From a virus, in the IMG/VR virus record IMGVR_UViG_3300045988_179268, positions 1 to 64,000 of that record: DNA of 64,000 bases. One strand, written 5' to 3'. Made by a program: the position numbers and the translations under genes. The number at the start of each line of letters is the position of its first letter. The first letter of the stretch is position 1. The notes under the pieces were generated by a model. That model was not told where the DNA came from, searched no databases, and saw nothing but the letters and a program-made list of their open reading frames with translations. Below are positions 2,893-40,329 of the stretch, piece after piece.

Positions 2893-2914
2893 ACTTTGAG
2901 AACAAGGAGAAATT

Positions 2915-3310: not shown

Positions 3311-3328
3311 AAGTCGGAAAGGAAAATT

Positions 3329-3980: not shown

Positions 3981-3986
3981 CTTTAT

Positions 3987-8079: not shown

Positions 8080-8116
8080 CGACACTACGAATAGTGGTAC
8101 AATTAAATCATGATTA

Positions 8117-8162
8117 GATGTGGAGGTTGCCACCCGCTACTTGGGGTGACAACCTCCACATC
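8117..8162 (+). terminator. stem-loop after secA (no U-tract)
   Basis: About 19-bp stem gatgtggaggttgccaccc / ggggtgacaacctccacatc with one mismatch. A TGgTACAAT motif (8095-8103) lies just upstream of it. Confidence 0.5.
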
Positions 8163-8202
8163 CCTGTAGCTTTAGAGATTCAACATAATTAAAAGGAGTT
8201 TT

Positions 8203-9279: not shown

Positions 9280-9384
9280 GCGACTAGCAGTGCAGATAAC
9301 TGTCAGAGAAGTGCGTGAGAGTGCAAGTGAGGTATTGGGCGATGTATACGCTATTCTTCGTCATTTAACAAATTTTAAACTATA

Positions 9385-9434
9385 GATAAAGCTCACCCCT
9401 AACCACTAGATGATGGTTAGGGGTGAGCTTTATC
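9385..9434. terminator. bidirectional stem-loop terminator
   Basis: Perfect 21-bp stem gataaagctcacccctaacca / tggttaggggtgagctttatc between convergent genes. Confidence 0.7.
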
Positions 9435-9447
9435 TTCATAAGGGGCA

Positions 9448-20014: not shown

Positions 20015-20100
20015 GACGGTGTGGCTGAATGGATTAGGCGGCAGTCTGCAAAACTGTTACACCCCTAGCGGGTATGCGGGTTCAAATCCCGTCACCGTCT
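20015..20100 (+). tRNA. type-II (long variable arm) tRNA with GCA (Cys) anticodon
   Basis: Manual cloverleaf: acceptor GACGGTG/CACCGTC, 3-bp D-stem, anticodon stem GCAGT/ACTGT, loop CTGCAAA, 18-nt variable region with ACCC/GGGT stem, T-arm GCGGG-TTCAAAT-CCCGT, discriminator T. Confidence 0.7.
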
Positions 20101-20105
20101 CAAAT

Positions 20106-20150
20106 ACAGAAGAAGCCCCAACCTGAAATTCAGGTTGGGGCTTCTTCTGT
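20106..20150. terminator. bidirectional stem-loop terminator
   Basis: Perfect 20-bp stem acagaagaagccccaacctg / caggttggggcttcttctgt between the tRNA (+) and pspA (-). Confidence 0.75.
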
Positions 20151-20217
20151 CACACCTTTGCGGGTAACAGCCTTTTTACCTATAGATTATGCATCGTTGG
20201 GTGACATGAAAGAACGC

Positions 20218-20943
20218 TTACGCCTTTGCCTGCTTAGCCTTCAAAGCGGCGAGGCGGTCATCAAGCTCAGCGTCACGCTTGATGGCTTCCAAGTCATTGA
20301 ACTGGTCGTTAATGTTGGAAGTTGCGAGTTCCTGCTGACCCATAGCGTATGCTTCTTCGCGGCGCACCTTCTCCTCGATGCTTGCCATTGCGGAGGTTGC
20401 GTCAAGAGTGGTGATGTTCTTGCTTGCCTCTGCCATGATGGTCTGTGCCTGAGCGGTCTTGCGGCGTGCGTTCAGTTCGTCACGCTTCTCCTTGACTTCC
20501 TCAAGCTTTGCGCGCATCTTGTCCAGACCGTCGCGAAGAACCGCTACGTTGTCACGCTGGGACTGAATCTGCGGAGCGTCAGTCTCGTTGCGCTTTTCAA
20601 GCTTCAACTGGTTACCAAGCGCGGTCTTTGCGAGGTTGTCATACTTGTCGGCGTTGGCTACATCACCTTCGGCGCGGAACTTGTCTGCCGCATTGGATGC
20701 GGCGAGTGCCTTGTCGCCCCATTCGATTGCTTCCTGCGCGCGGGTGTCGTAGTCCTTCTCTGCAAGTCGGAGGGTGCCGATAAGCTGTGCTACAGCGGCT
20801 TCTGCTTCACGAATGTTGTTGGTGTAGTCGCGGATAAGCTGGTCCAGCATCTTCTGAGGGTCTTCTGCCTTGTCAAGTAGTGCGTGGATGTTAGCCTTTG
20901 CGAGGTCTGCAACGCGGGTGAAGATGGTTACCTTCTGTGCCAT
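20218..20943 (-). CDS. pspA: PspA/IM30 family (phage shock protein A-like) membrane-stress protein
   Basis: MAQKVTIFTRVADLAKANIHALLDKAEDPQKMLDQLIRDY... is typical of the PspA N-terminus. The protein is an all-helical coiled coil of about 240 aa. Start set at the second ATG (20943), preceded by AAAGGTG. Confidence 0.85.
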   Translation of the reverse strand: MAQKVTIFTRVADLAKANIHALLDKAEDPQKMLDQLIRDYTNNIREAEAAVAQLIGTLRLAEKDYDTRAQEAIEWGDKALAASNAADKFRAEGDVANADKYDNLAKTALGNQLKLEKRNETDAPQIQSQRDNVAVLRDGLDKMRAKLEEVKEKRDELNARRKTAQAQTIMAEASKNITTLDATSAMASIEEKVRREEAYAMGQQELATSNINDQFNDLEAIKRDAELDDRLAALKAKQAKA

Positions 20944-25367: not shown

Positions 25368-26264
25368 ATGACCGAAAGTCTCAATGAAGGTGCCGCCTCG
25401 CTACCCACACAGCCCACTGAGACATCACGTAACGTAGATACCCAGGCGGAAGCCACGGAAGGGCACGATAGCCATTCTACGGGGCTACTGAGGCTTTTAG
25501 GATACGGCATTACGGCTGTGACCCTCGCTTTTCTATTCAGTAATGCTTTGGTCTGGGTTCTCAGCAAACCTATTTCTAGCCTTAACCTACCTGTGGGTAG
25601 TCATCATGTCTTTTCAATGGTTTACAGTGTCGCAATTATTCTTGTAACTTTTGGTATTGCGAAAGCAGTTTCAGCTAGAGTGGGCATGAGGCTTTGGTCT
25701 GTGGCATTGGGTGTTTTCAATCCAGCGCACGCATATAGGTATTTGTGGAGTGGTGTGCTTGGTGCTGTTGTACTTATGGCTATCAGCGTTGGTTCTGCTG
25801 TCCTTCTGGGTGGCAGGTCTGCGGCTGATGCAGTGGCACCCTACCAGGTGATGAATCTGCCGACTTTGGCGGCGTACTTTGGTTTCACTGTTGCCCTTGC
25901 TCCCATTGCTGAGGAGATGCTTTTTCGAGGCGTACTGATGTCTGTTGTCCGCAACAGTGTTATTCCTGGCGCTAAGGTTCTCATGGTTGGTATTTCAGCA
26001 TTTGGGTTCATGTTTTATCATGTGGCGGGTGCGTTTATCTCAGCAGTCAATCTGGCAGTAGCCTCCGGCTCCTTCGAGGTGCTGACAACTACTGTCGTGG
26101 CGTTACTACCTCAGATTGTAATGTACCTACTATCAGGCATTGCGCTATGCGTGCTGGCTTTGAAGACGCAAAATATTTACGCCTCTTGGCTTGCCCACGC
26201 TATCTACAACATGGCTTTGCTGTACGGGGTGAACAGTATTCTTGTTGGATGGGTCACTGGTTAA
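25368..26264 (+). CDS. CPBP-family (CAAX protease-like) intramembrane metalloprotease
   Basis: Polytopic membrane protein with the EEMLFRGVL, FMFYH and LAHAIYN motifs (EExxxR / FxxxH / H of the CPBP family). Confidence 0.75.
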   Translation: MTESLNEGAASLPTQPTETSRNVDTQAEATEGHDSHSTGLLRLLGYGITAVTLAFLFSNALVWVLSKPISSLNLPVGSHHVFSMVYSVAIILVTFGIAKAVSARVGMRLWSVALGVFNPAHAYRYLWSGVLGAVVLMAISVGSAVLLGGRSAADAVAPYQVMNLPTLAAYFGFTVALAPIAEEMLFRGVLMSVVRNSVIPGAKVLMVGISAFGFMFYHVAGAFISAVNLAVASGSFEVLTTTVVALLPQIVMYLLSGIALCVLALKTQNIYASWLAHAIYNMALLYGVNSILVGWVTG

Positions 26265-26646: not shown

Positions 26647-27726
26647 ATGGGTAAGAAGAATTTTTACACTAAGCTCGCTCTGACCACTCCGATTATTGCC
26701 GCGCTGATTGCACCTTCTGCGGCTTATGCTGATACTGCTAATACGGCAGTTGAGCAGGTTCCGGCAACCTTTACGGCACCCGCTTCTACGGGCTCTTATT
26801 ACGACCTTGTGGATGTCAATAACACTAAAGTAGTTGAACTCAGCAATGAAGAGCGTGTGGCTCTTAGGAATGTTTACCTTGATGCGGGTGACGTGAGTAT
26901 CGACGCTGTGTCTTTGAACAACCTCCAGAATGAGGCGGCGCGTAAGGCTCAGGCTCGCGGCAAGGCAATGGACAAGGTTTTGACTGCGCTTGACGATACC
27001 CGCAATGAGCTTGCGGCTAAGGCTGATGCAGAGAAGAAGGCTGAGGAAGAAGCCAAGGTAGCTAAGCTTAAGGCTGAGGAAGCAAAGAAAGCTGAGGAGC
27101 TTGCGGCTAAAGCACTTGCTGACGCAAAGTCAGCAGAAGAGGCTACCTCCGCCACTTCCCCCACTAGCCTAAACGCGGCTAATGAGGCAACTACGGTTGC
27201 TGTACAATCCAACTCTCAGCAGGCATATACGCCGACTACTTCGACTGCATCCAACAATAACACCCCTGCTACTGTTGCACCTGCCACTGTCAGTGGCAAC
27301 GGAACCTACGCATCCAATTTTGATGTTCGTGTAGCAGATACCGCTTCGAAGACTGCGACAAGCTCTGTTGATACCGCTAATTTGGACGCTACCCGTGCTG
27401 GTATCGTGAATACCGCAAAGACTGGCATTGGTGGCGCTTATATTTGGGGCGGTAAGACGTTCCGTGCATGGGACTGCTCCGGCTTCGTTTCTTGGGTTTA
27501 CGCCCAGCATGGCATTAAGCTTACTGCTTACACTTACGCAATGGCTGGTGAGCTTAAGGTGACCAACTCCCCGAAGCCTGGCGACATTGTTTTTCAGAAT
27601 GGCTACAGTCACGTCGGTATCTACATTGGTGACGGCAAGATGATTTCTGCACTGAATCCGTCTGAGGGTACCATCGTCCACTCTACTTCCATCATGTCTG
27701 TGGATGGTTACTACACCGCCCTTTAA
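26647..27726 (+). CDS. secreted NlpC/P60 peptidoglycan endopeptidase with A/E/K-rich coiled-coil linker
   Basis: Signal peptide ..IAALIAPSAAYA. AEKKAEEEAKVAKLKAEEAKKAEE linker. C-terminal GGAYIWGGKTFRAWDCSGFV..GYSHVGIYIGDG is closely paralogous to the C-terminus of the 16822 gene. Confidence 0.85.
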   Translation: MGKKNFYTKLALTTPIIAALIAPSAAYADTANTAVEQVPATFTAPASTGSYYDLVDVNNTKVVELSNEERVALRNVYLDAGDVSIDAVSLNNLQNEAARKAQARGKAMDKVLTALDDTRNELAAKADAEKKAEEEAKVAKLKAEEAKKAEELAAKALADAKSAEEATSATSPTSLNAANEATTVAVQSNSQQAYTPTTSTASNNNTPATVAPATVSGNGTYASNFDVRVADTASKTATSSVDTANLDATRAGIVNTAKTGIGGAYIWGGKTFRAWDCSGFVSWVYAQHGIKLTAYTYAMAGELKVTNSPKPGDIVFQNGYSHVGIYIGDGKMISALNPSEGTIVHSTSIMSVDGYYTAL

Positions 27727-27907: not shown

Positions 27908-28016
27908 TGTGTGCTTTTTGAAATAACCCCTAAATTCAGATAGACATCAAAGTGCATCGTGCGATATGTTGTAAGTGTCACATTGGTTATTTATTTGAAA
28001 GGCATGTGGTGCCATT

Positions 28017-28691
28017 ATGGGTTTCGTTTACCCTGTCACTGATTCTCCCGCTTACGAGTATGGGCTTGTTGCCACCCCGGAAGGTGAGACTGTCCCCGCG
28101 CTTGTGGATGGCTCTACGGTCTGGGTTCTCAATGTTGAGGATGGGCTGATTAGTCTCGTTAATATTGGTGCAGGCGCATTGTCTGGGTTGGATACCTCAC
28201 GTGGTGTTTTCCAGCGTGAGACGGACTATAGGACGTGGGTTCTGGATGCCGCTGAGTATATCGCTAAGGTTGCTCACGAGGGAATGGTTGATGCGGGCGG
28301 CAATGACTACTACGGTGGGCATGTAATTAATGTGGCTATGCAGGTCAGTGAGGACACTCATGGTAATGAATTTGCGGTAGCGGTAGCGTATCTGCATGAT
28401 GTCCTGGAGCAGACTAAGGTCACCGCGCATGAGTTGCGTAAGGTTATGCCCGAGGAAGTGCTAGATGCTGTTGTTGCTTTGACGCATGGTGAGCATGAAG
28501 ACTCATACCGCCTATACCTTTCCCGTGTCACAAAGAATCCTTTGGCGGCACTTGTGAAGCGTGCAGAGGTTGAGGATAACCGTGATGTTACTCGTCTACG
28601 TGAAGTTACTGATAAGGCGGCGTGGGAGTTGCTAAAGTATGACTTTGCGGCGCGCTACCTAGATGATAAGTTGAAGAAAACTTCTATCTAA
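28017..28691 (+). CDS. HD-domain phosphohydrolase (SpoT/Mesh1-like small hydrolase)
   Basis: GGHVINVA...AVAYLHDVLEQT...AVVALTH...VKRAEVEDN resembles the H..HD..D pattern of the RelA/SpoT-type HD hydrolase domain. The N-terminal roughly 70 aa are unassigned. Confidence 0.6.
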   Translation: MGFVYPVTDSPAYEYGLVATPEGETVPALVDGSTVWVLNVEDGLISLVNIGAGALSGLDTSRGVFQRETDYRTWVLDAAEYIAKVAHEGMVDAGGNDYYGGHVINVAMQVSEDTHGNEFAVAVAYLHDVLEQTKVTAHELRKVMPEEVLDAVVALTHGEHEDSYRLYLSRVTKNPLAALVKRAEVEDNRDVTRLREVTDKAAWELLKYDFAARYLDDKLKKTSI

Positions 28692-28925
28692 AATCTGCTT
28701 CCCACTCTAGACCTATTTGGGTTATTGTGGGTTCTGCATAGTTGGGTCAGGGCATCTGAAAGGTATTACTTCCTTATGCGTGTCCGCTATTGGTTCTGCT
28801 ATGTATTTTATGACCGTGAAGCACCTGAAATTTGTAGGGTGGCTTCACCGCCGGGGCGTTGATGCACCAAAGAACGCTCAGCGTCCCGGCAATTGTTCTG
28901 TAACCTATCATTGGAGACAACCCTA

Positions 28926-31900
28926 ATGGCTAAGACTACCTCAAAGAAGGTACTAACCGCACTTCCCATGCTTGCGCTTGCCGCTGTCCCGACCGTGAGC
29001 GGTATCGCTCCGGCGTTCGCGGCTGATGCAAACGCTACTACTGCTACCACCTTGAACGGCAACCTTGCGGGCGCTTCACTCAAGGTGGCTGGCGGCGAGG
29101 AAGTGCAGACTCTCACCAATGGTCGTGGTGGCGTGACCCGTCAGGTAACCCTCACCATCCCAAACCTTGATGGGGCACTCAAGGCAGGGCAGACTACCGA
29201 GATTGAGCTTATCCCCACTTTGGCGGCTGGCTCCGAAGGTAAGGAAAACGCCAACAACCTTCTGTTCACTACTAAGATGGCAGATGTTCTTGATGCAAGT
29301 GGCAAGAAGATTGGCACTCTGTCTAACCACCCGACGAATAGCCGCATTATCCGCATTACCTGGAATGATGCGATTACTGAGAACCCGCGTGACATTAGCG
29401 CGAACTTCACAGCAAATATTGACCCGCTGAATGATGAGAAGGTTCTCAAGACCTATGACCTGAAGTATAAGGCAACAGGTATTGGCACCATCAATGGCGG
29501 TCAGATTAAGCTGAATCCTGCCGCCAGCCAGGTGGACTTCATTGGACCTGGTGGTGTTTGGTACGGCGGTCAGGGTGTCGCAAAGTGTGGCGTGCCTGAT
29601 GCGTTCTTGAAGGGTCAGACTGTCCCGAATGGTGTCGTTAAGGGTGGCACCTACGAAATTGAGCTGATTATTGACCCTGCGAAGCAACAGTTCCGTATTG
29701 GTCAGGGTGAAGCTGATGACTATCTCAAGAAGAACCCCAATTTTACTGTAACCCAGTCAGTTCCTTCCAAGGAAATTAACGGTCGCTTCTACTACCTCCA
29801 CAATGAAGACCTTCTTGAATGGGGCAAGAAGAACCCTGAGCTTCGCAAGTACTTCACTCTTGCTGGTCACCGCACTGCGGCTGAGCAGAAGGCTTGGGCA
29901 GACCCCGAGGGTGACTTGAGCATCATTAACCCTGAAAATCTGTCTGTCCGTGCGGCAACTGGTAGCTTCGCCAACACTGTCCGTAACGAGTTGAAGGAAC
30001 GCGGTGTCACTGAGCCTCTGGTAACTATCGACTTTGAGAAGTCCACCCCCGGCAAGCTGGTTCTCAAGTACACCGCTTTGTGGGATGGCATGTCGTTCTG
30101 GTTCTCCACCACCTCGCCTGATGTCACTAAGGTTGTTGAGCAGGAGCCTCACTGGAAGGTTAAGGATTACGGCCCCGGTATCGACTCCGAGGGTAAGCGT
30201 TGTGGTGACGTACAGCTGACCGCTGAGGCAATCCGAAACAAGGAAACGACATTCACCTTTGAGGGTCGCACCTACCGCACTGACGTTGCCGGTCGCCCGC
30301 AGACTGGTTTTATTACCGCATGGGGTGGCTACAGCTACGAGGACGGTTCCGCTGAGTCTTACGCTTTGCCCAAGGATGGTAACGAGCAGAAGCAGGGCGC
30401 TTACGGTGTCACCCTGACTGCTGACCTGATGGAGAACTCCTCTACGGTTAAGCCGTACACCCTGGATAAGACTAAGACTATCTTCTCCACTACGGATGGT
30501 GCGACCATCTCTGAGAACGGCAAGAAGATTGTGGTTCCGGGTAAGGCGACCATCACTATCGACGCTAATGGTGTCGCAACTGCCGTCCCCGAGAAGGGGT
30601 TCAGCGGCACCGTGACCGTGAACTACAATATTTACGACAGCGGCAAGGCAACCACTAAGGTTCCTTCCACTGCAACGTTCACGTGGGCTAAGCAGTCGAA
30701 CCTGACTGTTGCCCCGGCTGAGAAGACTGTTCTGGTGAACAGCGAGAAGTCCCACACCCTTGACCCGCTGGCTACCGCTAAGGTTGAGGGTAGCACCGTC
30801 GATGCTTCTACTTTGAAGCTTGGCGATGGTAAGGGCTCCACGTCTTACAGCTTCGGTGATTCCGGCGTGACCGCCAAGGTTGTAAACGGTAAGGTCGTTT
30901 TCGACCACCCGCAGAACATTGTTGGCGATTTCACTCTCCGTTACATCGTTTCGACTGCTGATGGCAAGGAAGCTGAGTCTACTGTTACCTTGCACATTCA
31001 GCCCATCAACACGGCTATCGGTATCGTCACTAAGATTAACGGTGACGATGCGAACATTAACCCGGTGAAGTTGAAGCTTGATGAGAATGGTAATGCTACC
31101 GGCAAGGTCACGGTTGATGTGACTAACACCTCTGGCTCTGCTGTCACTTTGAACGCTAACACTTTGACTGTCGCTAATGCGGCGGGCGCTAAGGTAACCT
31201 TGCCTGCTGGCTTCACTCTTGCCCCTGGTGAGACGAAGACCCTTGAGGTTGGCACCGTTTCCGTGGCTTCGGGTAAGACTGCTGAGGTTACCTACAAGGC
31301 AACCCAGACTGCTAATATTTTTAAGCGTTGGGATGGCACTAAGGTTTCCGGTACTGTTGGTACTGCTCAGACTGTGAGTGACCCTGCTAAGGCTACTGCT
31401 GAGGTGGTTTCTGAGGTTCCGGGCAACCCTCCGGTTGTCGCAGATAACCCGGAAGCTACCTACACCGAGCCGAAGGCATCCGATGACAGCTACACCATCA
31501 CCACTGATGAGACTGTCCTAGAGGGCGTGCTGAGCAACGATAAGGGTGGTTCCATTAACGGTGTTGATGACCCGCTGGACGCGAAGACTATTCGCTTCCA
31601 GGCTGAGGATGGTTCTTGGGTTACTTCTCGAACCTTCGAGGGTAAGGGCACATACACTGTTGATGAGAACGGTGTCGTAAAGTTCCTCCGTGTGGCAGGT
31701 TACACTGGTGAGCTTCCTGAGGTGACTTACCAGGTTTCCACGGTTTCAGGTTTGAGCACTCAGGCGGTGATTCGTCTTGAGCACAAGGTTGAGCCGCCGG
31801 TAACTCCTAAGCCTGAGGAGCCGAAGGTTGAGAAGCCTGTCGAGCCTGTGAAGCAGGTGGAAGCTAAGACTGGTCGTGACACTGGTAACGGTGTTGCTGG

Positions 31901-31982
31901 TCAGGCTGGCTTGTTTGCCGCTATTGGTGCTGGTCTTGGGGCTTTGTTCCTGGGTAAGCGCCGTAAGGGTGAGCAGGAGTAA
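28926..31982 (+). CDS. large secreted surface protein (Ig-like/adhesin-type beta domains) with EAKTG sorting signal
   Basis: Start moved to the ATG at 28926. Signal peptide MAKTTSKKVLTALPMLALAAVPTVSGIAPAFA. C-terminus is PEEPKVEKPVEPVKQV-EAKTG (31860-31874), then a hydrophobic helix and KRRKGEQE. Confidence 0.8.
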   Translation: MAKTTSKKVLTALPMLALAAVPTVSGIAPAFAADANATTATTLNGNLAGASLKVAGGEEVQTLTNGRGGVTRQVTLTIPNLDGALKAGQTTEIELIPTLAAGSEGKENANNLLFTTKMADVLDASGKKIGTLSNHPTNSRIIRITWNDAITENPRDISANFTANIDPLNDEKVLKTYDLKYKATGIGTINGGQIKLNPAASQVDFIGPGGVWYGGQGVAKCGVPDAFLKGQTVPNGVVKGGTYEIELIIDPAKQQFRIGQGEADDYLKKNPNFTVTQSVPSKEINGRFYYLHNEDLLEWGKKNPELRKYFTLAGHRTAAEQKAWADPEGDLSIINPENLSVRAATGSFANTVRNELKERGVTEPLVTIDFEKSTPGKLVLKYTALWDGMSFWFSTTSPDVTKVVEQEPHWKVKDYGPGIDSEGKRCGDVQLTAEAIRNKETTFTFEGRTYRTDVAGRPQTGFITAWGGYSYEDGSAESYALPKDGNEQKQGAYGVTLTADLMENSSTVKPYTLDKTKTIFSTTDGATISENGKKIVVPGKATITIDANGVATAVPEKGFSGTVTVNYNIYDSGKATTKVPSTATFTWAKQSNLTVAPAEKTVLVNSEKSHTLDPLATAKVEGSTVDASTLKLGDGKGSTSYSFGDSGVTAKVVNGKVVFDHPQNIVGDFTLRYIVSTADGKEAESTVTLHIQPINTAIGIVTKINGDDANINPVKLKLDENGNATGKVTVDVTNTSGSAVTLNANTLTVANAAGAKVTLPAGFTLAPGETKTLEVGTVSVASGKTAEVTYKATQTANIFKRWDGTKVSGTVGTAQTVSDPAKATAEVVSEVPGNPPVVADNPEATYTEPKASDDSYTITTDETVLEGVLSNDKGGSINGVDDPLDAKTIRFQAEDGSWVTSRTFEGKGTYTVDENGVVKFLRVAGYTGELPEVTYQVSTVSGLSTQAVIRLEHKVEPPVTPKPEEPKVEKPVEPVKQVEAKTGRDTGNGVAGQAGLFAAIGAGLGALFLGKRRKGEQE

Positions 31983-32176
31983 GTTTCTTCTAGTGTAACA
32001 GGTAGCCCTGTTTAGTATTTGCGGGTGTTCCGCGTTCCTGACTTTGTTGGGGCGTGGGGCACCCGCTTTTTTATTGGGGTGCAGATAGTTTCTGCTATAT
32101 CTCTTTCTGTAAGCTTTGTTATTTACATCACACTCGCGATTATTTGTTGGAGGGTGTGGGAAGAGAGTCTTTTTAT

Positions 32177-34015
32177 ATGGCGAATATTTCTAAGCGTAAG
32201 GCAGGGGCTACCGCGTTGGCTGTGTCAATGCTGACTGGTACAGCGGTGGCTAATGCGGCTAATATTGTGCCGAAGAACCCGGTTCCTGCTGGTTCGTGTC
32301 TTATGAGTCAGTATCAGCCGGGCTTAGGTTGCCCGGACTGGGCAGATGAGTTTGATGGGGCAGAGGTCAATAAGGATTTCTGGAGCGTTTACGACGGCTA
32401 TTCTGAGGTGAATCAAGACCCTTATGGTAGGTACACGAAAGATGCCGTAACTGTTAAAGATGGTCAGCTTCATCTAACAACGAAAGTTGGGACTAACGGG
32501 CAGAAGGGACAATCTGCCGAGATGAGCACCAACAACAAGGCGGCATTTGAAGACGGGTACTGGGAGTTTAAAGTATCCAGCTATTCAGGCTTTGGGCATG
32601 TTGGTGGCTACTTGTATGGTAACGGCAATGTTGCTGGACCTCAGCAGGGAGAAATTGACGGCTACGAGGCGTTCGGTAGCACCAATAAGGACACTCGCAA
32701 TGAGGCAGGTAAGAAGGAAAAGTTTGACCAGTCGAACAAGAACCAAAGCATTATCCACTACAGCCAGGGCGCTATTGACGCACAAACAGGTAAGAAAGTA
32801 ACTCACGGTAAGGCTACTTGGCTCCCAAATAAGCCTGTCGGTGAACCTGTTGTTGTTGGCATTCTAAAGACTGCTGATGGCGTGAAGATTTTCCGCGACG
32901 GTGTTTTAGTTCAGGAGATGAAATCCACTGACCCAAACTACGCTAAAACGTTCCCTGCCGGTCAGCCACTTAACACTACATTGACTGCACGAGTTTCAAA
33001 TGTCTATTGGGGCTTGCAGAGCAACCCCACAGGCGGGATTTCTTTTGATTATGTGCGACACTACCCACTAGTAACAGTATCCCCCACGCCGACCGCATCA
33101 CCATCGGCAACCGTTGAGGCTCCAAAGCCAGTAGCGACAATAGAACCGACTGTTGCGGCACCCACCCCTTCCGCAACAGCTGAACCCAAGCCTTCTACAG
33201 CGACTCCTAGCCCAGTAGAGACTACAGCTACCCCAATTACTTCTCCAACGCCCACACTTAGCGTTGAGCCCACTATGGAGCCTAAGCCAACAGAAAGTAC
33301 CGTAGCGCCTTCCGCAACGCCTACGATTGAAGCTGTAGCACCTACACCAACTACTGATGCACCTAAGCCGGTAGAGACTACAGCTGTTCCAGTACCGTCG
33401 TCTAAGGCAACCCCTACTGAGGATGCGTCTAAGCCTGCTGAGCCGACACCTTCGGCTACGGTAGCTTCGCCATCACCTATTGTGACAGTGACGCCCTCTT
33501 CCGAACCTAGTGTGATGCCTTCCGCGGAGGCTTCTTCTCCGACGGCATCTACCTCACCATCACCTAGTGCGAGTGAAAATGTGTCACCTTCTCCTACAAG
33601 CGGGACTGCTACGGCTGAGGTGACCACTCCAAGCACCCCCATTGCGTCCAGTAGTGAAAAGTCTGGTAATGATTTAGTGCCCGACCCCAGTGCGTCACCG
33701 TCCCAGCAGGCATCGCCTTCGCCTTCTACTGAAAGCCTTATTCCTTCTCCTGAGGGAGATGAAGCGTTAAAGAATAAGAGTGGCGACAGGGTTGTTGATT
33801 CCAGTAACCCCTCTAGCATTAAAGGAAGTGATGCTTTGTCTACATCGAATGATTCGACTGGTAAGCCTAAACAGCCTGTAGTTGCGAAGACTGGTCATGA
33901 TGCCAAATCTGGAGGCTGGGTGACGGCTGGTATCGCGGCAATTGTTGTCGGCGTTATTGCTGTTGCCGGGTGGTTCTTTTTGTTCAAGTCACATAACGAT
34001 AACGACGGTCAGTAA
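32177..34015 (+). CDS. secreted GH16-like (concanavalin-type) glycoside hydrolase with P/T/S-rich stalk and VAKTG sorting signal
   Basis: Start moved to the ATG at 32177. Signal peptide MANISKRKAGATALAVSMLTGTAVANA. DEFDG..FWS..DGQLHL..GYWEFK..GEIDGYEAFG matches the GH16 ExDxxE catalytic strand. VAKTG at 33881-33895 is followed by a TM helix and KSHNDNDGQ. Confidence 0.75.
   Translation: MANISKRKAGATALAVSMLTGTAVANAANIVPKNPVPAGSCLMSQYQPGLGCPDWADEFDGAEVNKDFWSVYDGYSEVNQDPYGRYTKDAVTVKDGQLHLTTKVGTNGQKGQSAEMSTNNKAAFEDGYWEFKVSSYSGFGHVGGYLYGNGNVAGPQQGEIDGYEAFGSTNKDTRNEAGKKEKFDQSNKNQSIIHYSQGAIDAQTGKKVTHGKATWLPNKPVGEPVVVGILKTADGVKIFRDGVLVQEMKSTDPNYAKTFPAGQPLNTTLTARVSNVYWGLQSNPTGGISFDYVRHYPLVTVSPTPTASPSATVEAPKPVATIEPTVAAPTPSATAEPKPSTATPSPVETTATPITSPTPTLSVEPTMEPKPTESTVAPSATPTIEAVAPTPTTDAPKPVETTAVPVPSSKATPTEDASKPAEPTPSATVASPSPIVTVTPSSEPSVMPSAEASSPTASTSPSPSASENVSPSPTSGTATAEVTTPSTPIASSSEKSGNDLVPDPSASPSQQASPSPSTESLIPSPEGDEALKNKSGDRVVDSSNPSSIKGSDALSTSNDSTGKPKQPVVAKTGHDAKSGGWVTAGIAAIVVGVIAVAGWFFLFKSHNDNDGQ
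33080..33830 (+). repeat. low-complexity Pro/Thr/Ser/Ala-rich stalk
   Basis: SPTPTASPSATVEAPKPVATIEPTVAAPTPSATAEPKPSTATPSP... Boundaries are approximate. Confidence 0.7.
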
Positions 34016-34035
34016 TAAGTAATTTAGTTTTTGTT

Positions 34036-34079
34036 TTGTAGGCGGCGCGAGAGTAATTATGTTCTCGCGCCGCCTACAA
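34036..34079 (+). terminator. stem-loop terminator
   Basis: Perfect 17-bp stem ttgtaggcggcgcgaga / tctcgcgccgcctacaa. Confidence 0.7.
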
Positions 34080-34136
34080 CTTTTACTGCAAGTAAGATAG
34101 AATTGTTTGTACGGTTTTTACGTTAAGGAGATTTAA

Positions 34137-35237
34137 TTGAATACCCAGAATCCCGTTATCCACATTGTTGCGCATATGAGCGAAGATAGGCGGCGTGTCG
34201 GATTCCTGCCTGTTGCAGGTGGTTCGCTCGATGCTTTGAGTGTCCCCGTTGTCCAGTCAGTTTTTACAGGTAAGTCCATTCCTGATGGTCAGCCTACCAT
34301 TATTGAGGTCATTGATGAGTTGCGTGGTTGCGGGTATGACCGTGCCGATTTTGTTCTTGTTGCTTGGGATGCTCAGCGCATTTTGAGTGAGACTAAACGC
34401 GCAATTCCTGCTTTAAGTGCATTGGTTGGTGGCAAAGTGGTTGAGATGGAGTCCCTAGCTTTGGCTTTTAGCGGGTTGCCGTCAGACTCGCCGTATCGCT
34501 TCGTTCGTCCTGATGGCGGGTTGGCGCTAGTTGATGCTGTTCAGGATGTCTATTCTTTATATAAAGATAACATTATGAACCTTGCCACTTCTTATGATGC
34601 TATGCGCATTAGCGAGCACATCGGAAGCGGGGACGATTCTGACGGTGAAACGTTGAGGTCGCCTGCGTTGCTAGGTATTGGCGGCAAGAAAACGGCTGGC
34701 AAGGACACATTTGCTGGTCTTCTCGGCGATAACTGGGTGGTTATTGGTATGTCTGACCCGTTGTATGAGGTGTTGCTTGAACTTAATCCAAAGATTACAT
34801 ATGAGGCGGATGGTGATGCCGCTAATGTTGTTTATCTTTCCAATTATCTGCATAGTGTATGTGGTGGTGATTGGACTTTGGCTAAGCGAAACTCGGATGT
34901 TCGAGAAATGTTACAGCGGCTAGGCACTAATGTTGTGCGAAATATGGTTGATGAGGATGCCTGGGTGGATATGATGTCTGTCCGTGTGTTGCAACTTCAT
35001 TCTGAGGGCAAGAATGTTGCTGTCACTGGCATTAGGTTCCCCAATGAGCTTGCCCGTATTAAGGATATGGGTGGCAGTTCCGTCTGGGTTGAGAATAATC
35101 GAATCGACTCACCTGATACGCATATTTCTGAGCTATCTCTAATGCCTCGGGATTTCGATTTCACTGTCTACAATAATGGGTCTTTAGATGATTTGAATCA
35201 TTCTGCGAAGCAGGTTGCAGATATGGTTTCCGGCTAG
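34137..35237 (+). CDS. two-domain protein; C-terminal half resembles phage-type deoxynucleoside monophosphate kinase
   Basis: TTG start after TAAGGAG. P-loop-like GIGGKKTAGKDTFAGLL, plus LQRLGTNVVRNMVDEDAWV and VTGIRFPNELARIK. The N-terminal roughly 170 aa are unassigned. Confidence 0.5.
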   Translation: MNTQNPVIHIVAHMSEDRRRVGFLPVAGGSLDALSVPVVQSVFTGKSIPDGQPTIIEVIDELRGCGYDRADFVLVAWDAQRILSETKRAIPALSALVGGKVVEMESLALAFSGLPSDSPYRFVRPDGGLALVDAVQDVYSLYKDNIMNLATSYDAMRISEHIGSGDDSDGETLRSPALLGIGGKKTAGKDTFAGLLGDNWVVIGMSDPLYEVLLELNPKITYEADGDAANVVYLSNYLHSVCGGDWTLAKRNSDVREMLQRLGTNVVRNMVDEDAWVDMMSVRVLQLHSEGKNVAVTGIRFPNELARIKDMGGSSVWVENNRIDSPDTHISELSLMPRDFDFTVYNNGSLDDLNHSAKQVADMVSG

Positions 35238-35240
35238 ATT

Positions 35241-35331
35241 TTATTCACAAGAGTAAATATTTACTAGCATTTTCTTTTTGAAACCTCGTGTATTTTGCAA
35301 CAAACTCAAGTTTTAGTGAATAAATATTCAC
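35241..35331 (+). promoter_or_regulatory. cluster of TATTCAC-type sites and palindromes in an intergenic region
   Basis: TTATTCAC (35241-35248), perfect palindrome AGTAAATATTTACT (35252-35265) and inverted repeat GTGAATAAATATTCAC (35316-35331). Confidence 0.4.
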
Positions 35332-35369
35332 AACGACTAGTTTGGTTGCCTATCAGATGAGGAGCTTTT

Positions 35370-36953
35370 TTGGCTATTGACACTAACCGATTACCAGATG
35401 AGGGGAAGCCCACCGACGGAGTGAAACGCGCGCCCGCGCCTTCGGTGGGCGACTTGAATAATCCTGCCAATGTTGCGGAGATGTACACCCATATTCGCGC
35501 ATCTCATGGTGAAAAGATTCGCCTAAGTGAGCAGATGCGTAAATCTAAGGTTATGAAGTCGCCGGACAGTATTGACGAAATCTTCTACACTGCGCCACCT
35601 AAACGCGCCTACCCACTGTCGCCTGACCACCCAATTTTTTTGCGCGGCGCTGAGCTAGGTATCGACGTGCTTTCTGACCGTCTTTACAAGATAGTTTTAT
35701 CCACATATACGAAGGGGCTTTATACAGAGGATGAAGTGGATTGTTTCACTACTGCCCCTAGTGGTAAGCCTCCCAAGTTGCTGTGGGACATTATTGATGA
35801 AGCCCGCATCCCTGAGTGGGCTAAATCTAGGTTCTTCTTCCCCTCAGGCAAGCGCCGCAAACGCGCCGCCGCCATGTTGCCGCTCCCCACAGTATCGCCG
35901 GAGGAATCACAGGAAGGTGTGCGCCCTGTTACTCCAGAGGAGGCTTACTTCGGGGCACCTGAGGAGAGGCTGGTTGAGGAGCTACTTCCTTGGGATACGT
36001 CTTCTTTCGATAGCAAACTTTTCATCCCTGGGCTACACGGTCAGCATAAGGTCATGAGGAACAGGTATAGAGGCTTAATTGACTCTGTAGACGCAACTAT
36101 TACATTGGGTAACATGTTGCGTCTTGCCCCATTCTTGCAGATGGGCGATAACTCTGGTGACGAGTATAAGAACGTTTCGCCTGTGATTGAAAATGCGGTG
36201 CTTATGAATGAGGTGTGGGCGCGAGGCAGATTGTCGGCTGTGCCTTTCGTGAATCTCATTGGGGCTAATGAGATGCTTTACCTGAATCTGCCAAAGTCTC
36301 AGGCGGATAATTATTTGAAAGACACGGCTGAGGGTGTCAATTTTGTTCGTGAGGGTTGGCTAACCGATGAAAAGCGTAATCCGGCGGCTTTCAGATATTA
36401 TGTTGCAGTGGAAGCCGACGGCAGGTTGATTACTCATGCTGGGCTTTCCTATGGCGAGTGGGTAAATATTGGTCGCCCACAGACGGCGCGGCAAGCCGCA
36501 TACGCGCTCAACATGAAGTATCTAGGGACTTTGTACCAGGGAGAATGTCTGCGTCTCGGCAATGGGGTTAATTTTGCCGCAAACCCTATTATGGCTCATT
36601 CCATTGCAGAAGTGTATAGTTCGTGGATGTCCACGCCAGAACGTTGCCCGTTCCCTCAACTTCATGGGTCTATTTCCTTGCGTGACGCTACAGGACACGA
36701 AGTCTTGAGTACGTATCTTCATCCGATGTATTATGCGGAAAAGATGCGTTATCATCGTTGGGGTACCAGTATTACGTTAAATGGAACGCCGTTCTATGCT
36801 GTAGAGGGTCCCCGCAAGTCTCTGATTAAGCTTGACGATTATCAGAGGGGGTTCGGCGCTTATGTTCAAAGCACTCATAAGAAGCACGCTCAAGCTATCT
36901 ATCATCCCAATGTTCCGACACTGGTTAGTGCTGACGGAATGACGATTCTTTAA
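35370..36953 (+). CDS. hypothetical protein; C-terminal half resembles a degenerate calcineurin-like metallophosphoesterase
   Basis: TTG start 5 nt after GAGGAG. In order: IPGLHGQH, MGDNSGDEY, IGANEM, LITHAGLS, QLHGSIS, which parallel the DxHG / GDxxDRG / GNHE / HxG / GH motifs with key residues replaced. Confidence 0.4.
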   Translation: MAIDTNRLPDEGKPTDGVKRAPAPSVGDLNNPANVAEMYTHIRASHGEKIRLSEQMRKSKVMKSPDSIDEIFYTAPPKRAYPLSPDHPIFLRGAELGIDVLSDRLYKIVLSTYTKGLYTEDEVDCFTTAPSGKPPKLLWDIIDEARIPEWAKSRFFFPSGKRRKRAAAMLPLPTVSPEESQEGVRPVTPEEAYFGAPEERLVEELLPWDTSSFDSKLFIPGLHGQHKVMRNRYRGLIDSVDATITLGNMLRLAPFLQMGDNSGDEYKNVSPVIENAVLMNEVWARGRLSAVPFVNLIGANEMLYLNLPKSQADNYLKDTAEGVNFVREGWLTDEKRNPAAFRYYVAVEADGRLITHAGLSYGEWVNIGRPQTARQAAYALNMKYLGTLYQGECLRLGNGVNFAANPIMAHSIAEVYSSWMSTPERCPFPQLHGSISLRDATGHEVLSTYLHPMYYAEKMRYHRWGTSITLNGTPFYAVEGPRKSLIKLDDYQRGFGAYVQSTHKKHAQAIYHPNVPTLVSADGMTIL

Positions 36954-37053
36954 ACTCTCTGCTATATATGTTATGCGAAAAACGCAAGCATCTGGCAAGA
37001 TGTCAGGTGTCCAAATCGAGTTTTGCGCATATGTGTGTATTGTGAATTGCCTA

Positions 37054-37099
37054 AAGGGGCGTTCAGACCATTGTTAGGTATATGGTCTGAACGCCCCTT
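37054..37099. terminator. bidirectional stem-loop terminator
   Basis: Perfect 17-bp stem aaggggcgttcagacca / tggtctgaacgcccctt between convergent genes. Confidence 0.7.
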
Positions 37100-37122
37100 C
37101 CGGTTCGTATAACAGGATTTTG

Positions 37123-37956
37123 TTATGCTACTGGTTCTGCTACCACCACATGATTATCAGTGTAAGTCCAGGTGCCATTTTTATAGGTTCCGTGGCACGT
37201 CGCCATGATAAGTTTGCGGGAGCCGTTCTTATCGGTCACGTCCCACCATTTGCTCAAATCGACCTGTGGGACTTTAGGCTCAATACGGGTTACTTTCCAT
37301 GTAGTCATAATTCCGTTCTCGTCCGTGGTGTAGACTGTATTTCCGCGTTCGCAGGCGACAATGGCACTCATGGGGGCGGGGACACCATTTGCCCAGTTTA
37401 CGTGACCCACTAGCAATGTCGTCCCTTTGTTGCTGGTCAGTGGCGCTGAGTCGGTGTAAACGCCGATTCTGTATGTTACAGGGATATTGATTTCTGTCCT
37501 GCCCGTTGTGGGGTTGTCAGTCCCTCCCGTGTATTGGAGTCCAGCGTTAAACCCTACATCTGGGATTCGGATAGTCATAGGGTTGATATTGTTCCAGTCT
37601 AGGTTTTTAGGTTGCTGACCCAATCCGGGGGTTGTATCCTCGGGCATATGGTCGATGCTATCAATATCGCCGCTTGTCTCTGCATGGTAATTTGGGGAGG
37701 CGGTGGTGGCAGTAGTATCGGTAGTAGGTTGTGATGGGGTTGGGGTAATTGAGGCGTTCCCGCTGTTTGACTGCTGAATTTCTGCAATTTGCGAAGCGCT
37801 GGGTGCATTGAATGATTCTGCTTGACGATTCACGTTCTCACGGTTTACTGAGTCAAAGTAGTATCCTGCACCGCCACCTAATGCGCTTGCGGCGGCAACT
37901 ACACCAACACCCTTCAATACATCGCGGCGGCTAGTCTTTTTCTGATTATCGGTCAT
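37123..37956 (-). CDS. sortase-like cysteine transpeptidase (class E/F-like) with twin-arginine signal-anchor
   Basis: N-terminus TSRRDVLKGVGVVAAASALGG. MTIRIPDVGFNAGLQ resembles the sortase PxxLxIPxxG strand. His motif TLLVGHVNW, Cys motif LIMATCHG. No Arg occurs in the 23 residues after the Cys (HGTYKNGTWTYTDNHVVVAEPVA). Confidence 0.7.
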   Translation of the reverse strand: MTDNQKKTSRRDVLKGVGVVAAASALGGGAGYYFDSVNRENVNRQAESFNAPSASQIAEIQQSNSGNASITPTPSQPTTDTTATTASPNYHAETSGDIDSIDHMPEDTTPGLGQQPKNLDWNNINPMTIRIPDVGFNAGLQYTGGTDNPTTGRTEINIPVTYRIGVYTDSAPLTSNKGTTLLVGHVNWANGVPAPMSAIVACERGNTVYTTDENGIMTTWKVTRIEPKVPQVDLSKWWDVTDKNGSRKLIMATCHGTYKNGTWTYTDNHVVVAEPVA

Positions 37957-37997
37957 GAGTTTCAGGCTTTCCAGGCATCATTTTATGCCTATAAAGA

Positions 37998-38006
37998 TGA
38001 TATAAT
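37998..38006 (+). promoter_or_regulatory. consensus extended -10 promoter
   Basis: TGaTATAAT, directly followed by TATTCAC, about 70 nt upstream of the ATG at 38077. Confidence 0.5.
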
Positions 38007-38076
38007 TATTCACACCATTATAGCTCACGGTACGGTTTTTAAAATCATTTTTCTTTAGAAATTGGAGAGATACGTT

Positions 38077-38697
38077 ATGCCCAAAGAAGACAAGAAGTCC
38101 ACACATTACAACCTGCCCCGCCCAGGTTACGGTAGTGTTTATGGTGGTGCCTCCACTGCCGAAGAGATTGTAAGTTCACTAGAGGCAAGAGAGGAGAATA
38201 ACACCACCTTATCCGTCGAGGAGCTTGAGGCGGAACTTGATGAGCGTGACTTGCATAGTTTAGCTGTTCTGTCTTTGATGATTGTCGAAAGAATGAAGGA
38301 ACTGCGTGCCGCTTTGCTTCGAGAGATGGACGCTAAACGCAAGTATGCGGCGGCAGTGTACGCTTACGATAATGCTTTTACTCTGGCTTGCCGTGAAGTG
38401 AGGTCGGGTGGTCATCTAGAGGATTCAGGTGAAGAAGGCGCTAAAGGTAGGCGTTTAACTGAGACTGAGGTAAAGGAGTACGCCACGCTCATGTGTAAGG
38501 GCTATGCGGTGGATAAGGTCATGGCATCAGATGCGTTGCAGACAGCTTCTACTGAGGTGAATATTATTCGTGGCGAAGTTAGTGCTATCAATAGCCTGAC
38601 TAATAATGAGCGCACCCTGCTAAACACTACGGATGCTGTTTATAAGAACGCGCGGTCAGCACTAAATGCTGACGCACGCAAGAAGAATCACGCCTAA
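38077..38697 (+). CDS. coiled-coil hypothetical protein
   Basis: ATG 38077 is preceded by GGAGAG. About 206 aa, predicted helical, no motif. Confidence 0.5.
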   Translation: MPKEDKKSTHYNLPRPGYGSVYGGASTAEEIVSSLEAREENNTTLSVEELEAELDERDLHSLAVLSLMIVERMKELRAALLREMDAKRKYAAAVYAYDNAFTLACREVRSGGHLEDSGEEGAKGRRLTETEVKEYATLMCKGYAVDKVMASDALQTASTEVNIIRGEVSAINSLTNNERTLLNTTDAVYKNARSALNADARKKNHA

Positions 38698-38719
38698 TTT
38701 CAAGGATGCTAACTAACTG

Positions 38720-39406
38720 ATGTCGCTCAGCAAGTCTCACATGAATAATGCGGATAGGATGGCTTCTATCCGTTCGTCAGCTGTTTCTGCGCCGCCGCCA
38801 CCAGATACGGAGCATGTTAAGCCACAAGGTAAGACTAGAAGGTTCCCGAGGCTTGTAACGGGTCTATTTGTCGGCATGTTAGTGGTGGCGGGTGCTGGGT
38901 ATGGTGCTTATAAAAGCGGCGTAACACCTGATACGCTCATAAGTAAAGTTTCGCCTACAGTCACCCAGTATCGTGTTGCGGGTGATTCAATGTTGCCCAC
39001 CTTTCAGGACGGGCAGATTCTTCTTTTTGAGAACCCACAGTCGGAACCTATTAATCGTGGCGATATTGTCGTCGCAGAAATGCCTGCCGTATGGCAATAT
39101 GCCAGCGCTACGCAGGGTGTCGTGGTGAAGAGGGTCGCCGCCGCTGAGGGAGACACGGTTTCTGTTATCGCGGGCGCTGTTCATGTAAATGGCGAACAAA
39201 TCACCCCTGTTCAGCCTACTTGCCAAGCAGATGAATATCAGCGTGTCCTTGGTGCTGGTGAGCTTTTTGTACTAGGCGACAATCGTTCCAATTCCCTAGA
39301 CTCTCTTAGTGTTCTCTGTACAGGTAAGGTTGAGGCAGATGCAGATGTACTTGTTCACACTTCCGCCGTTAAAGCCCACGGGAAAACTCCTGTTGTGAAA
39401 GGTTAG
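38720..39406 (+). CDS. lepB: signal peptidase I (S26 family)
   Basis: N-terminal TM anchor. GDSMLPTF (catalytic Ser), VVKRVAAAEGD (catalytic Lys box) and VLGDNRSNSLDS. Confidence 0.85.
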   Translation: MSLSKSHMNNADRMASIRSSAVSAPPPPDTEHVKPQGKTRRFPRLVTGLFVGMLVVAGAGYGAYKSGVTPDTLISKVSPTVTQYRVAGDSMLPTFQDGQILLFENPQSEPINRGDIVVAEMPAVWQYASATQGVVVKRVAAAEGDTVSVIAGAVHVNGEQITPVQPTCQADEYQRVLGAGELFVLGDNRSNSLDSLSVLCTGKVEADADVLVHTSAVKAHGKTPVVKG

Positions 39407-39417
39407 GTGACGTTCAA

Positions 39418-40329
39418 ATGAGTAAGGAATTTCAGCGAGTCACCCTCATTGCTGAGCCACATGATTTATTCCGCGACTACCTTACCCGCAAAGCATGTAA
39501 AGAGCTTATGGACTCCAGTGGTGGCGATTTGGTGCGTGCTGGATTGGTGCAAGAAGCTACAGCCGTAGATTTGTTTGGTGGGGTACATGTATATCTCGTG
39601 GAATGCCCCTCAAAGGCAGACGTGGAGATAGCAGTTAAGACCCTTGCTAATTGTAGCGGCGAACCTTGGGGAGGTCTTGTAATCTCAACTGGCGCGCCTA
39701 TGAACTCACTCAGAGGTTTATTGAAGAAAGCCGAAGAGATGAATGTTTCTGTGCTTAAGCCCAAGTCCTCTAAGAATCGTGTACGCAAGGAACTTGAAGA
39801 GACAGGTTTATCTCGTCCTATCGTTAATTTCATGGTTGAACATGCGGGGGAGGATTTAAATCATGTCGTTCCGTTGCTTGATTTCATCTCAACGTTACCT
39901 TTTGATGACAGGAAAAGGCTTACCCTCCAGGAGGTAGACCACTGCATCCCAATTGAGCCAGGGACTCGCGCCCCTTGGGATATTTTAGACGCTTTAGTAA
40001 GGCGTGATGTGGCTAAGGTGATTAGTTCTATTGACCGTGCGGGCGGAGGTTCAACTTTTCCGCTGGCTGTCCTTAAGACAAAACTTTCAGACACTCTAAA
40101 AGTTGCGTCTTACCTGGAATTTAAACCTAAAGCATCTTTGGATGATGTCGTGAAGGCGTTCGATGGTAGCAAATGGAGTTTGAAAGAGCCTTATGCTTTG
40201 GCGCGCAGGGCAGGCTTTCAGGGTATAATGGAGATAGCCAATAGCCTCAGTGCATTCTTAAGGAACCCTAACAGAAACTACTCTGTTGATGAGTTTAAAG
40301 ATTTTTGCCTGGGCTTATGTTTTAAATAA
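39418..40329 (+). CDS. possible DNA polymerase III delta (HolA)-like clamp-loader subunit
   Basis: 303 aa. Size, predicted helical C-terminal region and placement in a replication-gene run support the call. Sequence similarity was judged by eye only. Confidence 0.3.
   Translation: MSKEFQRVTLIAEPHDLFRDYLTRKACKELMDSSGGDLVRAGLVQEATAVDLFGGVHVYLVECPSKADVEIAVKTLANCSGEPWGGLVISTGAPMNSLRGLLKKAEEMNVSVLKPKSSKNRVRKELEETGLSRPIVNFMVEHAGEDLNHVVPLLDFISTLPFDDRKRLTLQEVDHCIPIEPGTRAPWDILDALVRRDVAKVISSIDRAGGGSTFPLAVLKTKLSDTLKVASYLEFKPKASLDDVVKAFDGSKWSLKEPYALARRAGFQGIMEIANSLSAFLRNPNRNYSVDEFKDFCLGLCFK

Follow-up and report, generated by a model that had tools for sequence, protein, structure and literature searches.

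A divergent class F-type sortase and surface proteins with [A/V]xTG-type tails on an apparently giant mobile or viral element

According to PMC8703055 and PMC6998099, which cite Malik & Kim 2019, an Asn in place of the catalytic Arg is a hallmark of the class F sortases of actinobacteria; in PMC6998099 this is stated for the Streptomyces enzymes. Several reviews still assign His-Cys-Arg to all sortases (PMC8225981, PMC13257024). Here we describe a sortase gene, and the surface proteins encoded around it, in a 64,000-nucleotide stretch of DNA (positions 1 to 64,000 of the IMG/VR virus record IMGVR_UViG_3300045988_179268), hereafter called the window. We consider it rather probable that a divergent class F sortase forms the centre of a self-contained module for cell-wall sorting at this locus. 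As in the class F enzymes (NF033748; IPR042001; Malik & Kim 2019), the gene product has the sortase beta-barrel, conserved His and Cys residues and an Asn for Arg in a Y-x-D-N-x-V-V-x-A-x-P strand; it is likewise single-pass and N-terminally anchored, and its gene is linked to that of a surface protein with a signal other than LPxTG. It differs from them in its low identity to the named enzymes (about 27-33%), in reading TCHG and not the usual TCGG, in its twin-arginine translocation (Tat)-type anchor and long N-terminal linker with a well-predicted segment, and in being encoded on what looks like a giant mobile or viral element and not on a chromosome or an ordinary plasmid.

The tails of the surface proteins share with the GVDTG sorting domain (NF058571) a tripartite signal with a [V]-x-T-G core, a signal found beside class F sortase genes. 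Unlike that domain, they have no preceding Gly-Gly, carry Ala at P3 as often as Val and have mostly Lys at x. The class E/LAxTG system (S. coelicolor SrtE1, PDB 5cuw) resembles the present one in P3 Ala and T-G, which occur together in two of the signals, in a similar enzyme fold (Foldseek) and in its actinobacterial range; class E enzymes, however, keep the catalytic Arg and need Leu at P4, whereas here Asn is found in the enzyme and Glu, Val or Thr at P4. Compared by description, the whole element has its nearest published parallel in the Inocles of oral Streptococcus (PMC12340149), which it resembles in size (245-395 kb there, contigs of 300-367 kb here), in consisting mostly of ORFans, in carrying tRNAs with a strong strand and GC-skew organisation, and in encoding its own sortase, S26 signal peptidase and surface proteins with sortase signals. 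In Inocles, by contrast, the G+C content is 24-32%, the host is Streptococcus, the sortase belongs to class A and the motifs are LPXTG-like; the element studied here has 49% G+C, actinobacterial hallmarks (Tat, LGFP, class F sortase, actinophage-like DnaE) and [A/V]xTG signals. A literature search on sortases in jumbo phages returned nothing relevant. The novelty lies in the setting: a class F sortase, an [A/V]xTG variant, a SecA and a signal peptidase together on a giant, probably actinobacterial, element.

The Pfam Sortase model (PF04203) matched the product of the sortase gene (Table 1) with 46.5 bits (threshold 26.6, E = 3.7e-12). His185 lies in LLVGHV and Cys254 in LIMATCHG. Both Tat models passed their cut-offs (PF10518, 24.6 bits against 22.7; TIGR01409, 21.3 against 16.7), and the N-terminus, of the signal-anchor type, carries the twin-arginine motif SRRDVLK, whose RR pair is invariant in 13 close homologues. 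These results agree with a preliminary description of the window, made from the sequence alone, which had noted a sortase-like gene with His and Cys motifs and a Tat-like anchor. A Tat-inserted sortase is unusual, and the aligned relatives of the Kocuria type mostly have no RR pair. No second sortase was found in the window among the open reading frames (ORFs) scanned.

The top NCBIfam family for the protein was class_F_sortase (NF033748) at 48.2 bits, far under the trusted cut-off of 166 bits; three relatives from the profile search (P0014, P0041 and P0158) also scored under this cut-off, with 47-107 bits. When the protein was compared by tblastn with the plasmids of PLSDB, all six matches, from Arthrobacter, Paenarthrobacter, Streptomyces and Cutibacterium, were annotated "class F sortase" (27-33% identity), and the same name is given by NCBI to the cluster of Kocuria homologues. 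The corresponding tblastn search against phages gave no match. Because the best NCBIfam family and the annotations of the plasmid matches and of the Kocuria cluster coincide, the protein is assigned, by sequence, to a divergent branch of the class F-type sortases. Its close homologues are few, a word-index protein search having returned only 12, all metagenomic. A profile search of 1.84 billion representatives retrieved 1084 relatives, and an alignment of 131 of these was used for all counts of residue conservation given below. G178, H185 and C254 are invariant in this alignment and the Cys motif reads MATC.

An AlphaFold2 (AF2) model built from the same 131-sequence alignment was confident, with a predicted local distance difference test score (pLDDT) of 88.9. 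Strand beta7 (residues 248-259) holds Cys254 and strand beta8 (262-275) holds Asn268. In a Foldseek search of the PDB with this model, the top matches were all sortases of classes A, C and E, with a probability of 1.00. Searches of the PDB with the single sequence or a 13-sequence profile gave marginal sortase A matches only, and the PDB alignment was obtained with the 131-sequence profile. In the model, the linker at residues ~50-80, NAPSASQIAEIQQSNSGNASITPTP, has a pLDDT of 92-97 despite its position outside the catalytic barrel, and may be packed against the domain in the manner of the lids or N-terminal appendages seen in class C, E and B sortases.

The 23 residues that follow Cys254 contain no Arg, as the preliminary description had reported and translation confirmed. 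At position 268, Asn is found in 127 of the 131 relatives and Arg in three (MAFFT alignment), and these three end like ordinary sortases (YSDRLVVFA). When the profile was aligned to the class A SrtA of PDB 7s54, YtdNvvVtAe paired with WEKRIIVHAE, which places Asn268 on the catalytic Arg. The HMMER alignment to S. aureus SrtA (1ija) stops one residue earlier and is in the same register (profile 218 = chain K196). Since the two HMMER alignments and the Arg-bearing relatives in the same MAFFT column agree, position 268 is taken as the Arg position. An hhalign comparison with S. aureus SrtA set T266 opposite R197 at the end of the alignment and was rejected as an edge artefact. The strand around Asn268 reads D-N-x-V-V-x-A-x-P and fits the class F rule of Asn for Arg.

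It had also been suggested that the Arg might be contributed from elsewhere in the fold, and nothing indicates this. R247 is the sole widely conserved Arg (112 of 131); it stands seven residues before Cys254, and its position at the far end of beta7 makes it implausible as a substitute, judging from strand geometry. R130 and R262 were likewise rejected, as they are not conserved beyond the close family. The comparison with sortase models and structures bears out the absence of the canonical Arg and at the same time fills its column with Asn268, so that the missing Arg is, on alignment evidence, a known class F trait and not a peculiarity of this enzyme.

The motifs EVKTG, EAKTG, VAKTG and TLRTG, which had been read at the C-termini of four proteins of the window, are exact in translation (Table 1). 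Each is followed by a spacer of 4-18 residues, an uncharged stretch of 17-26 residues and a K/R tail, and all four proteins have signal-peptide-like N-termini, in line with the tripartite C-termini and secretion proposed for them. A C-terminal LPxTG or LAxTG occurs nowhere in the window. Only five of the 76 ORFs of at least 100 amino acids (aa) in the six frames of the window passed a filter for a C-terminal hydrophobic stretch with a basic tail; one of them runs antisense within the gene of the 403-aa protein. In the four genuine tail-anchored proteins, [AVL]xTG is always present within 22 residues upstream, while 0.043 occurrences per protein are expected from the frequency of this pattern in the proteins of the window. 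With the LPXTG model TIGR01167, only the adhesin (ORF from 28893) gave a score, 14.8 bits against a cut-off of 15.9 (E = 0.035), and none of the four proteins matched the GVDTG model NF058571 (44 positions, 29 bits) at E <= 0.1. The tails of the window are a signal variant that is missed by the NF058571 model. They also fail the class E rule LAxTG: P4 is Glu, Val, Glu and Thr, and P3 is Ala in two of the four.

Table 1. Coordinates of the sortase, its candidate substrates and other features of the window, with loci on related contigs.
Feature	Coordinates	Strand	Remarks
Divergent class F-type sortase, 277 aa	37123-37956	minus	Assigned from Pfam match, fold model and annotated relatives
Sortase His185	37402-37404	minus	
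Sortase Cys254	37195-37197	minus	
Sortase Asn268	37153-37155	minus	
Sortase N-terminus	37888-37956	minus	RR at nt 37924-37929
Sortase linker, residues ~50-80	37717-37809	minus	
Adhesin-like secreted protein, ~1018 aa from ATG 28926	28926-31982 (ORF from 28893)	plus	CshA-repeat, Big_9 and cadherin-like domains; VEAKTG-RDTGNGVAGQ-hydrophobic-KRRKGEQE
EAKTG of adhesin-like protein	31860-31874	plus	
Secreted protein with long Pro/Thr/Ser-rich stalk	32177-34015 (ORF from 32054)	plus	N-terminal globular domain, weak beta-glucanase-like match; VVAKTG-HDAK-hydrophobic-KSHNDNDGQ
VAKTG of Pro/Thr/Ser-rich protein	33881-33895	plus	
Secreted surface protein with SIALI-17 repeats, 1110 aa	10342-13674	plus	LVEVKTG-HGHSSQ-hydrophobic-RPKTEVRDHE
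EVKTG of SIALI-17 protein	13546-13560	plus	
Pro/Thr-rich secreted protein, 403 aa	62611-63822	plus	C-terminal hydrophobic segment and KNRKRD tail
TLRTG of 403-aa protein	63679-63693	plus	18 residues before hydrophobic segment; doubtful signal
TLRTG-to-LPAIT region of 403-aa protein	63679-63760	plus	
Type I signal peptidase S26	38720-39406	plus	Pfam Peptidase_S26, 72.6 bits; divergent, one gene from sortase
CPBP/Rce1-like intramembrane protease	25368-26264	plus	Pfam PF02517, 52.5 bits; no specific link to sorting signals
SecA homologue	4555-8079	plus	Four SecA Pfam domains
SecA intein, ~316 aa	~4894-5841	plus	In Walker A motif
GH25 muramidase with five LGFP repeats and NlpC/P60 endopeptidase, 1018 aa	16753-19809		
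Second NlpC/P60 protein	26647-27726		
Split DnaE-type polymerase and clamp loader, three ORFs	47250-48761, 48783-50012, 50016-52730		
Short FtsK/SpoIIIE-like ATPase, 330 aa	56933-57925		PHROG "FtsK/SpoIIIE-like protein"
Full-length RecA	58620-59819		Strand opposite to FtsK-like gene
tRNA-Gly (CCC)	2754-2825		
tRNA-Ser (GCT)	3892-3981		
tRNA-Cys (GCA)	20015-20101		
Contigs L037, L038: orthologues of 403-aa protein, signal region	~2050-2230		TLRTG and LPVTG
Contig L027: P0016 sortase, 982-aa tail-anchored neighbour and TrwC-type relaxase gene	1-1318, 6001-9887		
Contig L032: CPBP/Rce1-like protease	2533-3474		2.5 kb from sortase P0015

Orthologous loci were collected from related contigs (L001-L007 and L034-L038; sortase identity 58-78%). 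The adhesin signal, VEAKTGRD in the window, is kept as VEAKTG[RH]D in all orthologues (L001-L005, L007). The Pro/Thr/Ser-rich protein ends VVAKTGHD in the window and VVAPTGHD, IVAATGHD or LVAATGHD elsewhere, and the SIALI-17 protein reads VEVKTGH in the window and PVEAKTGH or PIEAKTGH in its orthologues. Across these sequences T-G is fixed, P3 is Ala or Val, a hydrophobic residue stands at P5 or P4, and the residue before TG is Lys, Pro or Ala. The latter position is free, since the orthologues of the VAKTG protein carry Pro or Ala there, and the alternation of Val and Ala at P3 follows from the SIALI-17 orthologues. The gene order adhesin, Pro/Thr/Ser-rich protein, deoxynucleoside monophosphate kinase, unknown, sortase, unknown, S26 peptidase persists, with its signals, down to 58% sortase identity.

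These comparisons bear on the proposal that the Lys or Arg before TG, then described as invariant, compensates for the Arg missing from the enzyme, or that a CPBP protease does the processing. Lys or Arg does precede TG in all four window motifs and, likewise, in the neighbours of the Kocuria sortases described below; orthologues of the same protein, however, carry Pro or Ala at this position, and the signals linked to class F sortases elsewhere carry Glu, Gln or Asp although their enzymes keep the same Asn. The rule of a basic residue does not survive, its apparent invariance being, from these alignments, a sampling effect of a single genome, and because the residue varies both in orthologues and in other class F loci, charge compensation is untenable as a general mechanism. 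As for proteolysis, the window holds one CPBP gene among the ORFs scanned, not the two first counted, and another such gene lies near the related sortase P0015 on the unrelated contig L032, possibly by coincidence. CPBP genes are common, however, loci L001-L007 keep the sortase-substrate block with no adjacent CPBP gene, and no specific support for CPBP processing was found. Charge compensation and CPBP processing are both hardly credible.

Of the four signals first proposed, TLRTG of the 403-aa protein is doubtful, because the orthologues carry a canonical LPVTG closer to the hydrophobic segment. In L037 and L038, TLRTG is kept and LPVTG follows 10 residues downstream. The same site reads LPAIT in the window, apparently through a two-residue loss relative to the orthologues. 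The window copy may have lost a signal for a housekeeping sortase, or it may use TLRTG. In the SIALI-17 protein, the repeats (NF043031, 51.6 bits, cut-off 30) stand directly before the sorting signal, at residues ~913-1061, and the protein has weak similarity to repeat regions of streptococcal ZmpA/ZmpD.

The pairing of such a sortase with tailed proteins was also found in other lineages. Kocuria loci were obtained from a genome-collection scan with a narrower sortase alignment (A4). In four of four genomes a nearby surface protein ends in [IL][ML]VRTG or VDVKTG followed by a transmembrane segment (TM) and RRR, one being a Big_8/MSCRAMM-like adhesin; this protein adjoins the sortase homologue in three loci and is encoded ~230 bp upstream of a partial match in the fourth. 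In a Nocardioidaceae metagenome-assembled genome and in Pseudonocardia, the gene directly upstream of the sortase ends GGVETG + TM + RRR. The Nocardioidaceae protein (the L018 neighbour), which served as positive control, passed the NF058571 model with 32.6 bits against 29, and the Pseudonocardia protein, with 20.3 bits, stayed under the 29-bit cut-off. On the C. acnes plasmid p11-79, a "VaFE repeat-containing surface-anchored protein" with GGVQTG + TM + RRH is encoded beside a class F sortase, and on an Arthrobacter alpinus plasmid a VWA protein ends VATETG + TM + RRSK. Seven metagenomic members of the closer sortase subfamily likewise have a large ORF beside the sortase or in its vicinity. 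Where the C-terminus of this neighbour is on the contig (L027, L028, L029, L032 and L033), a TM and a basic tail are present in five of five cases, at most ~1 kb from the sortase. From these loci, [V/A/T]-x-T-G without Leu-Pro appears to be the class-level signal of class F sortases. A literature search on VETG/GVDTG sorting signals found no paper, the signal being recorded in NCBIfam only. On contig L027, the P0016 sortase and its 982-aa tail-anchored neighbour lie ~4.7 kb from a gene for a TrwC-type relaxase, and the sortase subfamily therefore also travels on conjugative elements.

Starting from the observed sortase fold, the His, Cys and Asn residues, the tripartite signals and the conservation and linkage across relatives, the following scheme is proposed, in which the pairing of the enzyme with its substrates, the site of cleavage, the acceptor and the part played by Asn are putative. 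The sortase would be inserted through its Tat-type N-terminal signal anchor. Three adhesin-like proteins, possibly a fourth, would be exported through Sec with cleavable signal peptides, probably assisted by the element's own S26 signal peptidase and SecA; the C-terminal helix and the basic tail would keep them in the membrane. Cys254, assisted by His185, would then attack the T-G bond, and Asn268 may form the hydrogen bonds for which other classes use Arg. The substrates would be cut between Thr and Gly of hydrophobic-x-[A/V]-x-T-G and the acyl-enzyme would be resolved by a host peptidoglycan precursor. In this view the element has its own form of the [V/A/T]-x-T-G signal that goes with class F sortases in general.

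An alternative, which we judge unlikely, is that the host's housekeeping class E sortase anchors these proteins through A-x-T-G while the sortase of the element serves another purpose or substrate. EAKTG, VAKTG, VAPTG and VAATG indeed have Ala at P3 like the class E signal LAxTG (specificity: PMC8225981, PMC5148588), the orthologues of the 403-aa protein bear a canonical LPVTG, a possible signal for a housekeeping sortase, and PMC13251363 describes the physiological role of class F sortases as unknown. No signal of the window, however, has Leu at P4 (Glu, Val, Glu and Thr are found), and P3 is Val or Leu in two of the proteins. Moreover, the class F or class F-like loci of Kocuria, Nocardioidaceae, Pseudonocardia, Arthrobacter and Cutibacterium pair with [V/A/T]xTG proteins, and across the element family the genes of the sortase and the substrates keep their synteny. 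This linkage across lineages and a P4 that is never Leu argue for processing of the proteins by the element's own enzyme.

It is still less probable that these are plain tail-anchored membrane proteins whose xTG stays uncleaved, the sortase-like protein being dead or a protease and not a transpeptidase. In favour of this reading, the enzyme has no canonical Arg, and P4 and P5 of the motifs are loosely defined. Against this, conservation of His, Cys and Asn among the relatives argues for a working active site, T-G and P3 are kept in the orthologues while the flanks drift, and motif, spacing and tail match the architecture of classical sorting signals.

Several points weigh against the sorting module that we favour. 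We know of no Asn-type class F sortase that has been characterised biochemically together with a signal of the VxTG type. The tails of the window are not matched by NF058571 and stay below the cut-off of the LPXTG model (best score 14.8 against 15.9 bits), and the sortase, at 48 bits, is far from the class F cut-off of 166. In the distant loci of the metagenomic subfamily the motifs are looser (VTVQTD, INKTD, VVVQSA and FDTG), so the signal rule is not strict. EAKTG and VAKTG contain A-x-T-G, which might be accepted by a host class E sortase (LAxTG). LPXTG is the signal reported for P. acnes SrtF, the sole "class F" enzyme characterised (PMC8225981), and a quadruple knockout of class F sortases in Actinoplanes missouriensis had no phenotype (PMC13251363).

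A broader and rather doubtful reading goes beyond the sorting module itself. The element might carry a complete orthogonal surface-display kit, with an intein-bearing SecA, a signal peptidase I, a Tat-anchored Asn-type sortase and adhesin-like cargo. Its [A/V]xTG signals, with no Leu at P4, would be unreadable by the LPxTG/LAxTG sortases of the host, whose wall would be redecorated independently of the host machinery.

The window looks to be a portion of a giant (~300-370 kb) mobile or viral replicon. Public metagenomes contain the exact sortase sequence again, on contigs reaching 319-367 kb, and among the viral contigs of IMG/VR there are relatives of 307 and 361 kb. Two IMG/VR contigs of roughly 360 kb, 3300045988_174371 and _174689, are candidates for the full element. 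Nearly all its genes are on one strand, its cumulative GC skew rises monotonically and its G+C content is 46-54%. About half of the ORFs of the window have no Pfam or PHROG match. A PHROG scan of 20 ORFs gave no structural match and no capsid, portal or terminase gene was seen in the 64 kb. A near-identity DNA search of positions 28000-40000 against PLSDB plasmids and INPHARED phages returned nothing. The host is likely an actinobacterium, in view of the Tat signal, the LGFP repeats, the class F sortase and the polymerase of actinophage type. The nearest cellular relatives of the sortase, in the Micrococcaceae (Kocuria, Arthrobacter), may be a weak pointer to a host in that family, such as Rothia or Kocuria.

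The S26 signal peptidase likely removes the N-terminal signal peptides of the substrates. Its neighbourhood with the sortase is kept in the annotated loci L001-L003 (58% sortase identity), and L004 has ORFs of matching size, a match of size only, at the corresponding positions of the sortase-S26 block. The SecA homologue is possibly part of the same surface-display toolkit. Its intein is bounded by the junctions MGTGEGK|AVTIDTL...HVVTHN|TLTAV and matches intein-bearing PHROGs (terminase, primase and DnaC-like). An Ala at position 1, a Cys in the block-F-like VCFTV and a Thr at +1 suggest, from the sequence, a class 3-type intein.

Among the remaining genes, those for the GH25-LGFP-NlpC/P60 and second NlpC/P60 proteins encode wall-remodelling or lysis enzymes, LGFP being an actinobacterial wall-binding module. 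The DnaE-type polymerase is split into a part with the PHP domain and the start of the NTPase domain and a part with the rest, with a delta'-like/AAA clamp-loader gene between them. DnaE-like polymerases from Streptomyces phages and from a human faecal phage contig share 35-37% identity with the larger part. A TraB-type ATPase of actinomycete conjugation or segregation is a possible identity for the FtsK-like protein, and would bear on whether the element is plasmid or phage in nature. The other recognisable genes encode a C5 methylase and a Pif1-like helicase. The tRNA-Cys gene overlaps the listed start of ORF 20074-20880, and the true start of this ORF is therefore probably further downstream.

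The current understanding of sortases is not overturned by these results, as the missing Arg has already been published. Class F is the only class of sortases for which the physiological role and the natural substrates are still unsettled, and this locus, together with the comparative loci, gives a testable pairing of an Asn-type sortase with [V/A]xTG-tailed adhesins. If the orthogonal kit were real, it would be the first natural enzyme/substrate set for defining class F sortase function, and the sortase/signal pair could find use in protein ligation. As this locus shows, a sortase, a signal peptidase and a SecA of their own are also found on giant extrachromosomal or viral elements outside Streptococcus, and surface remodelling may therefore be a recurring strategy of giant elements.

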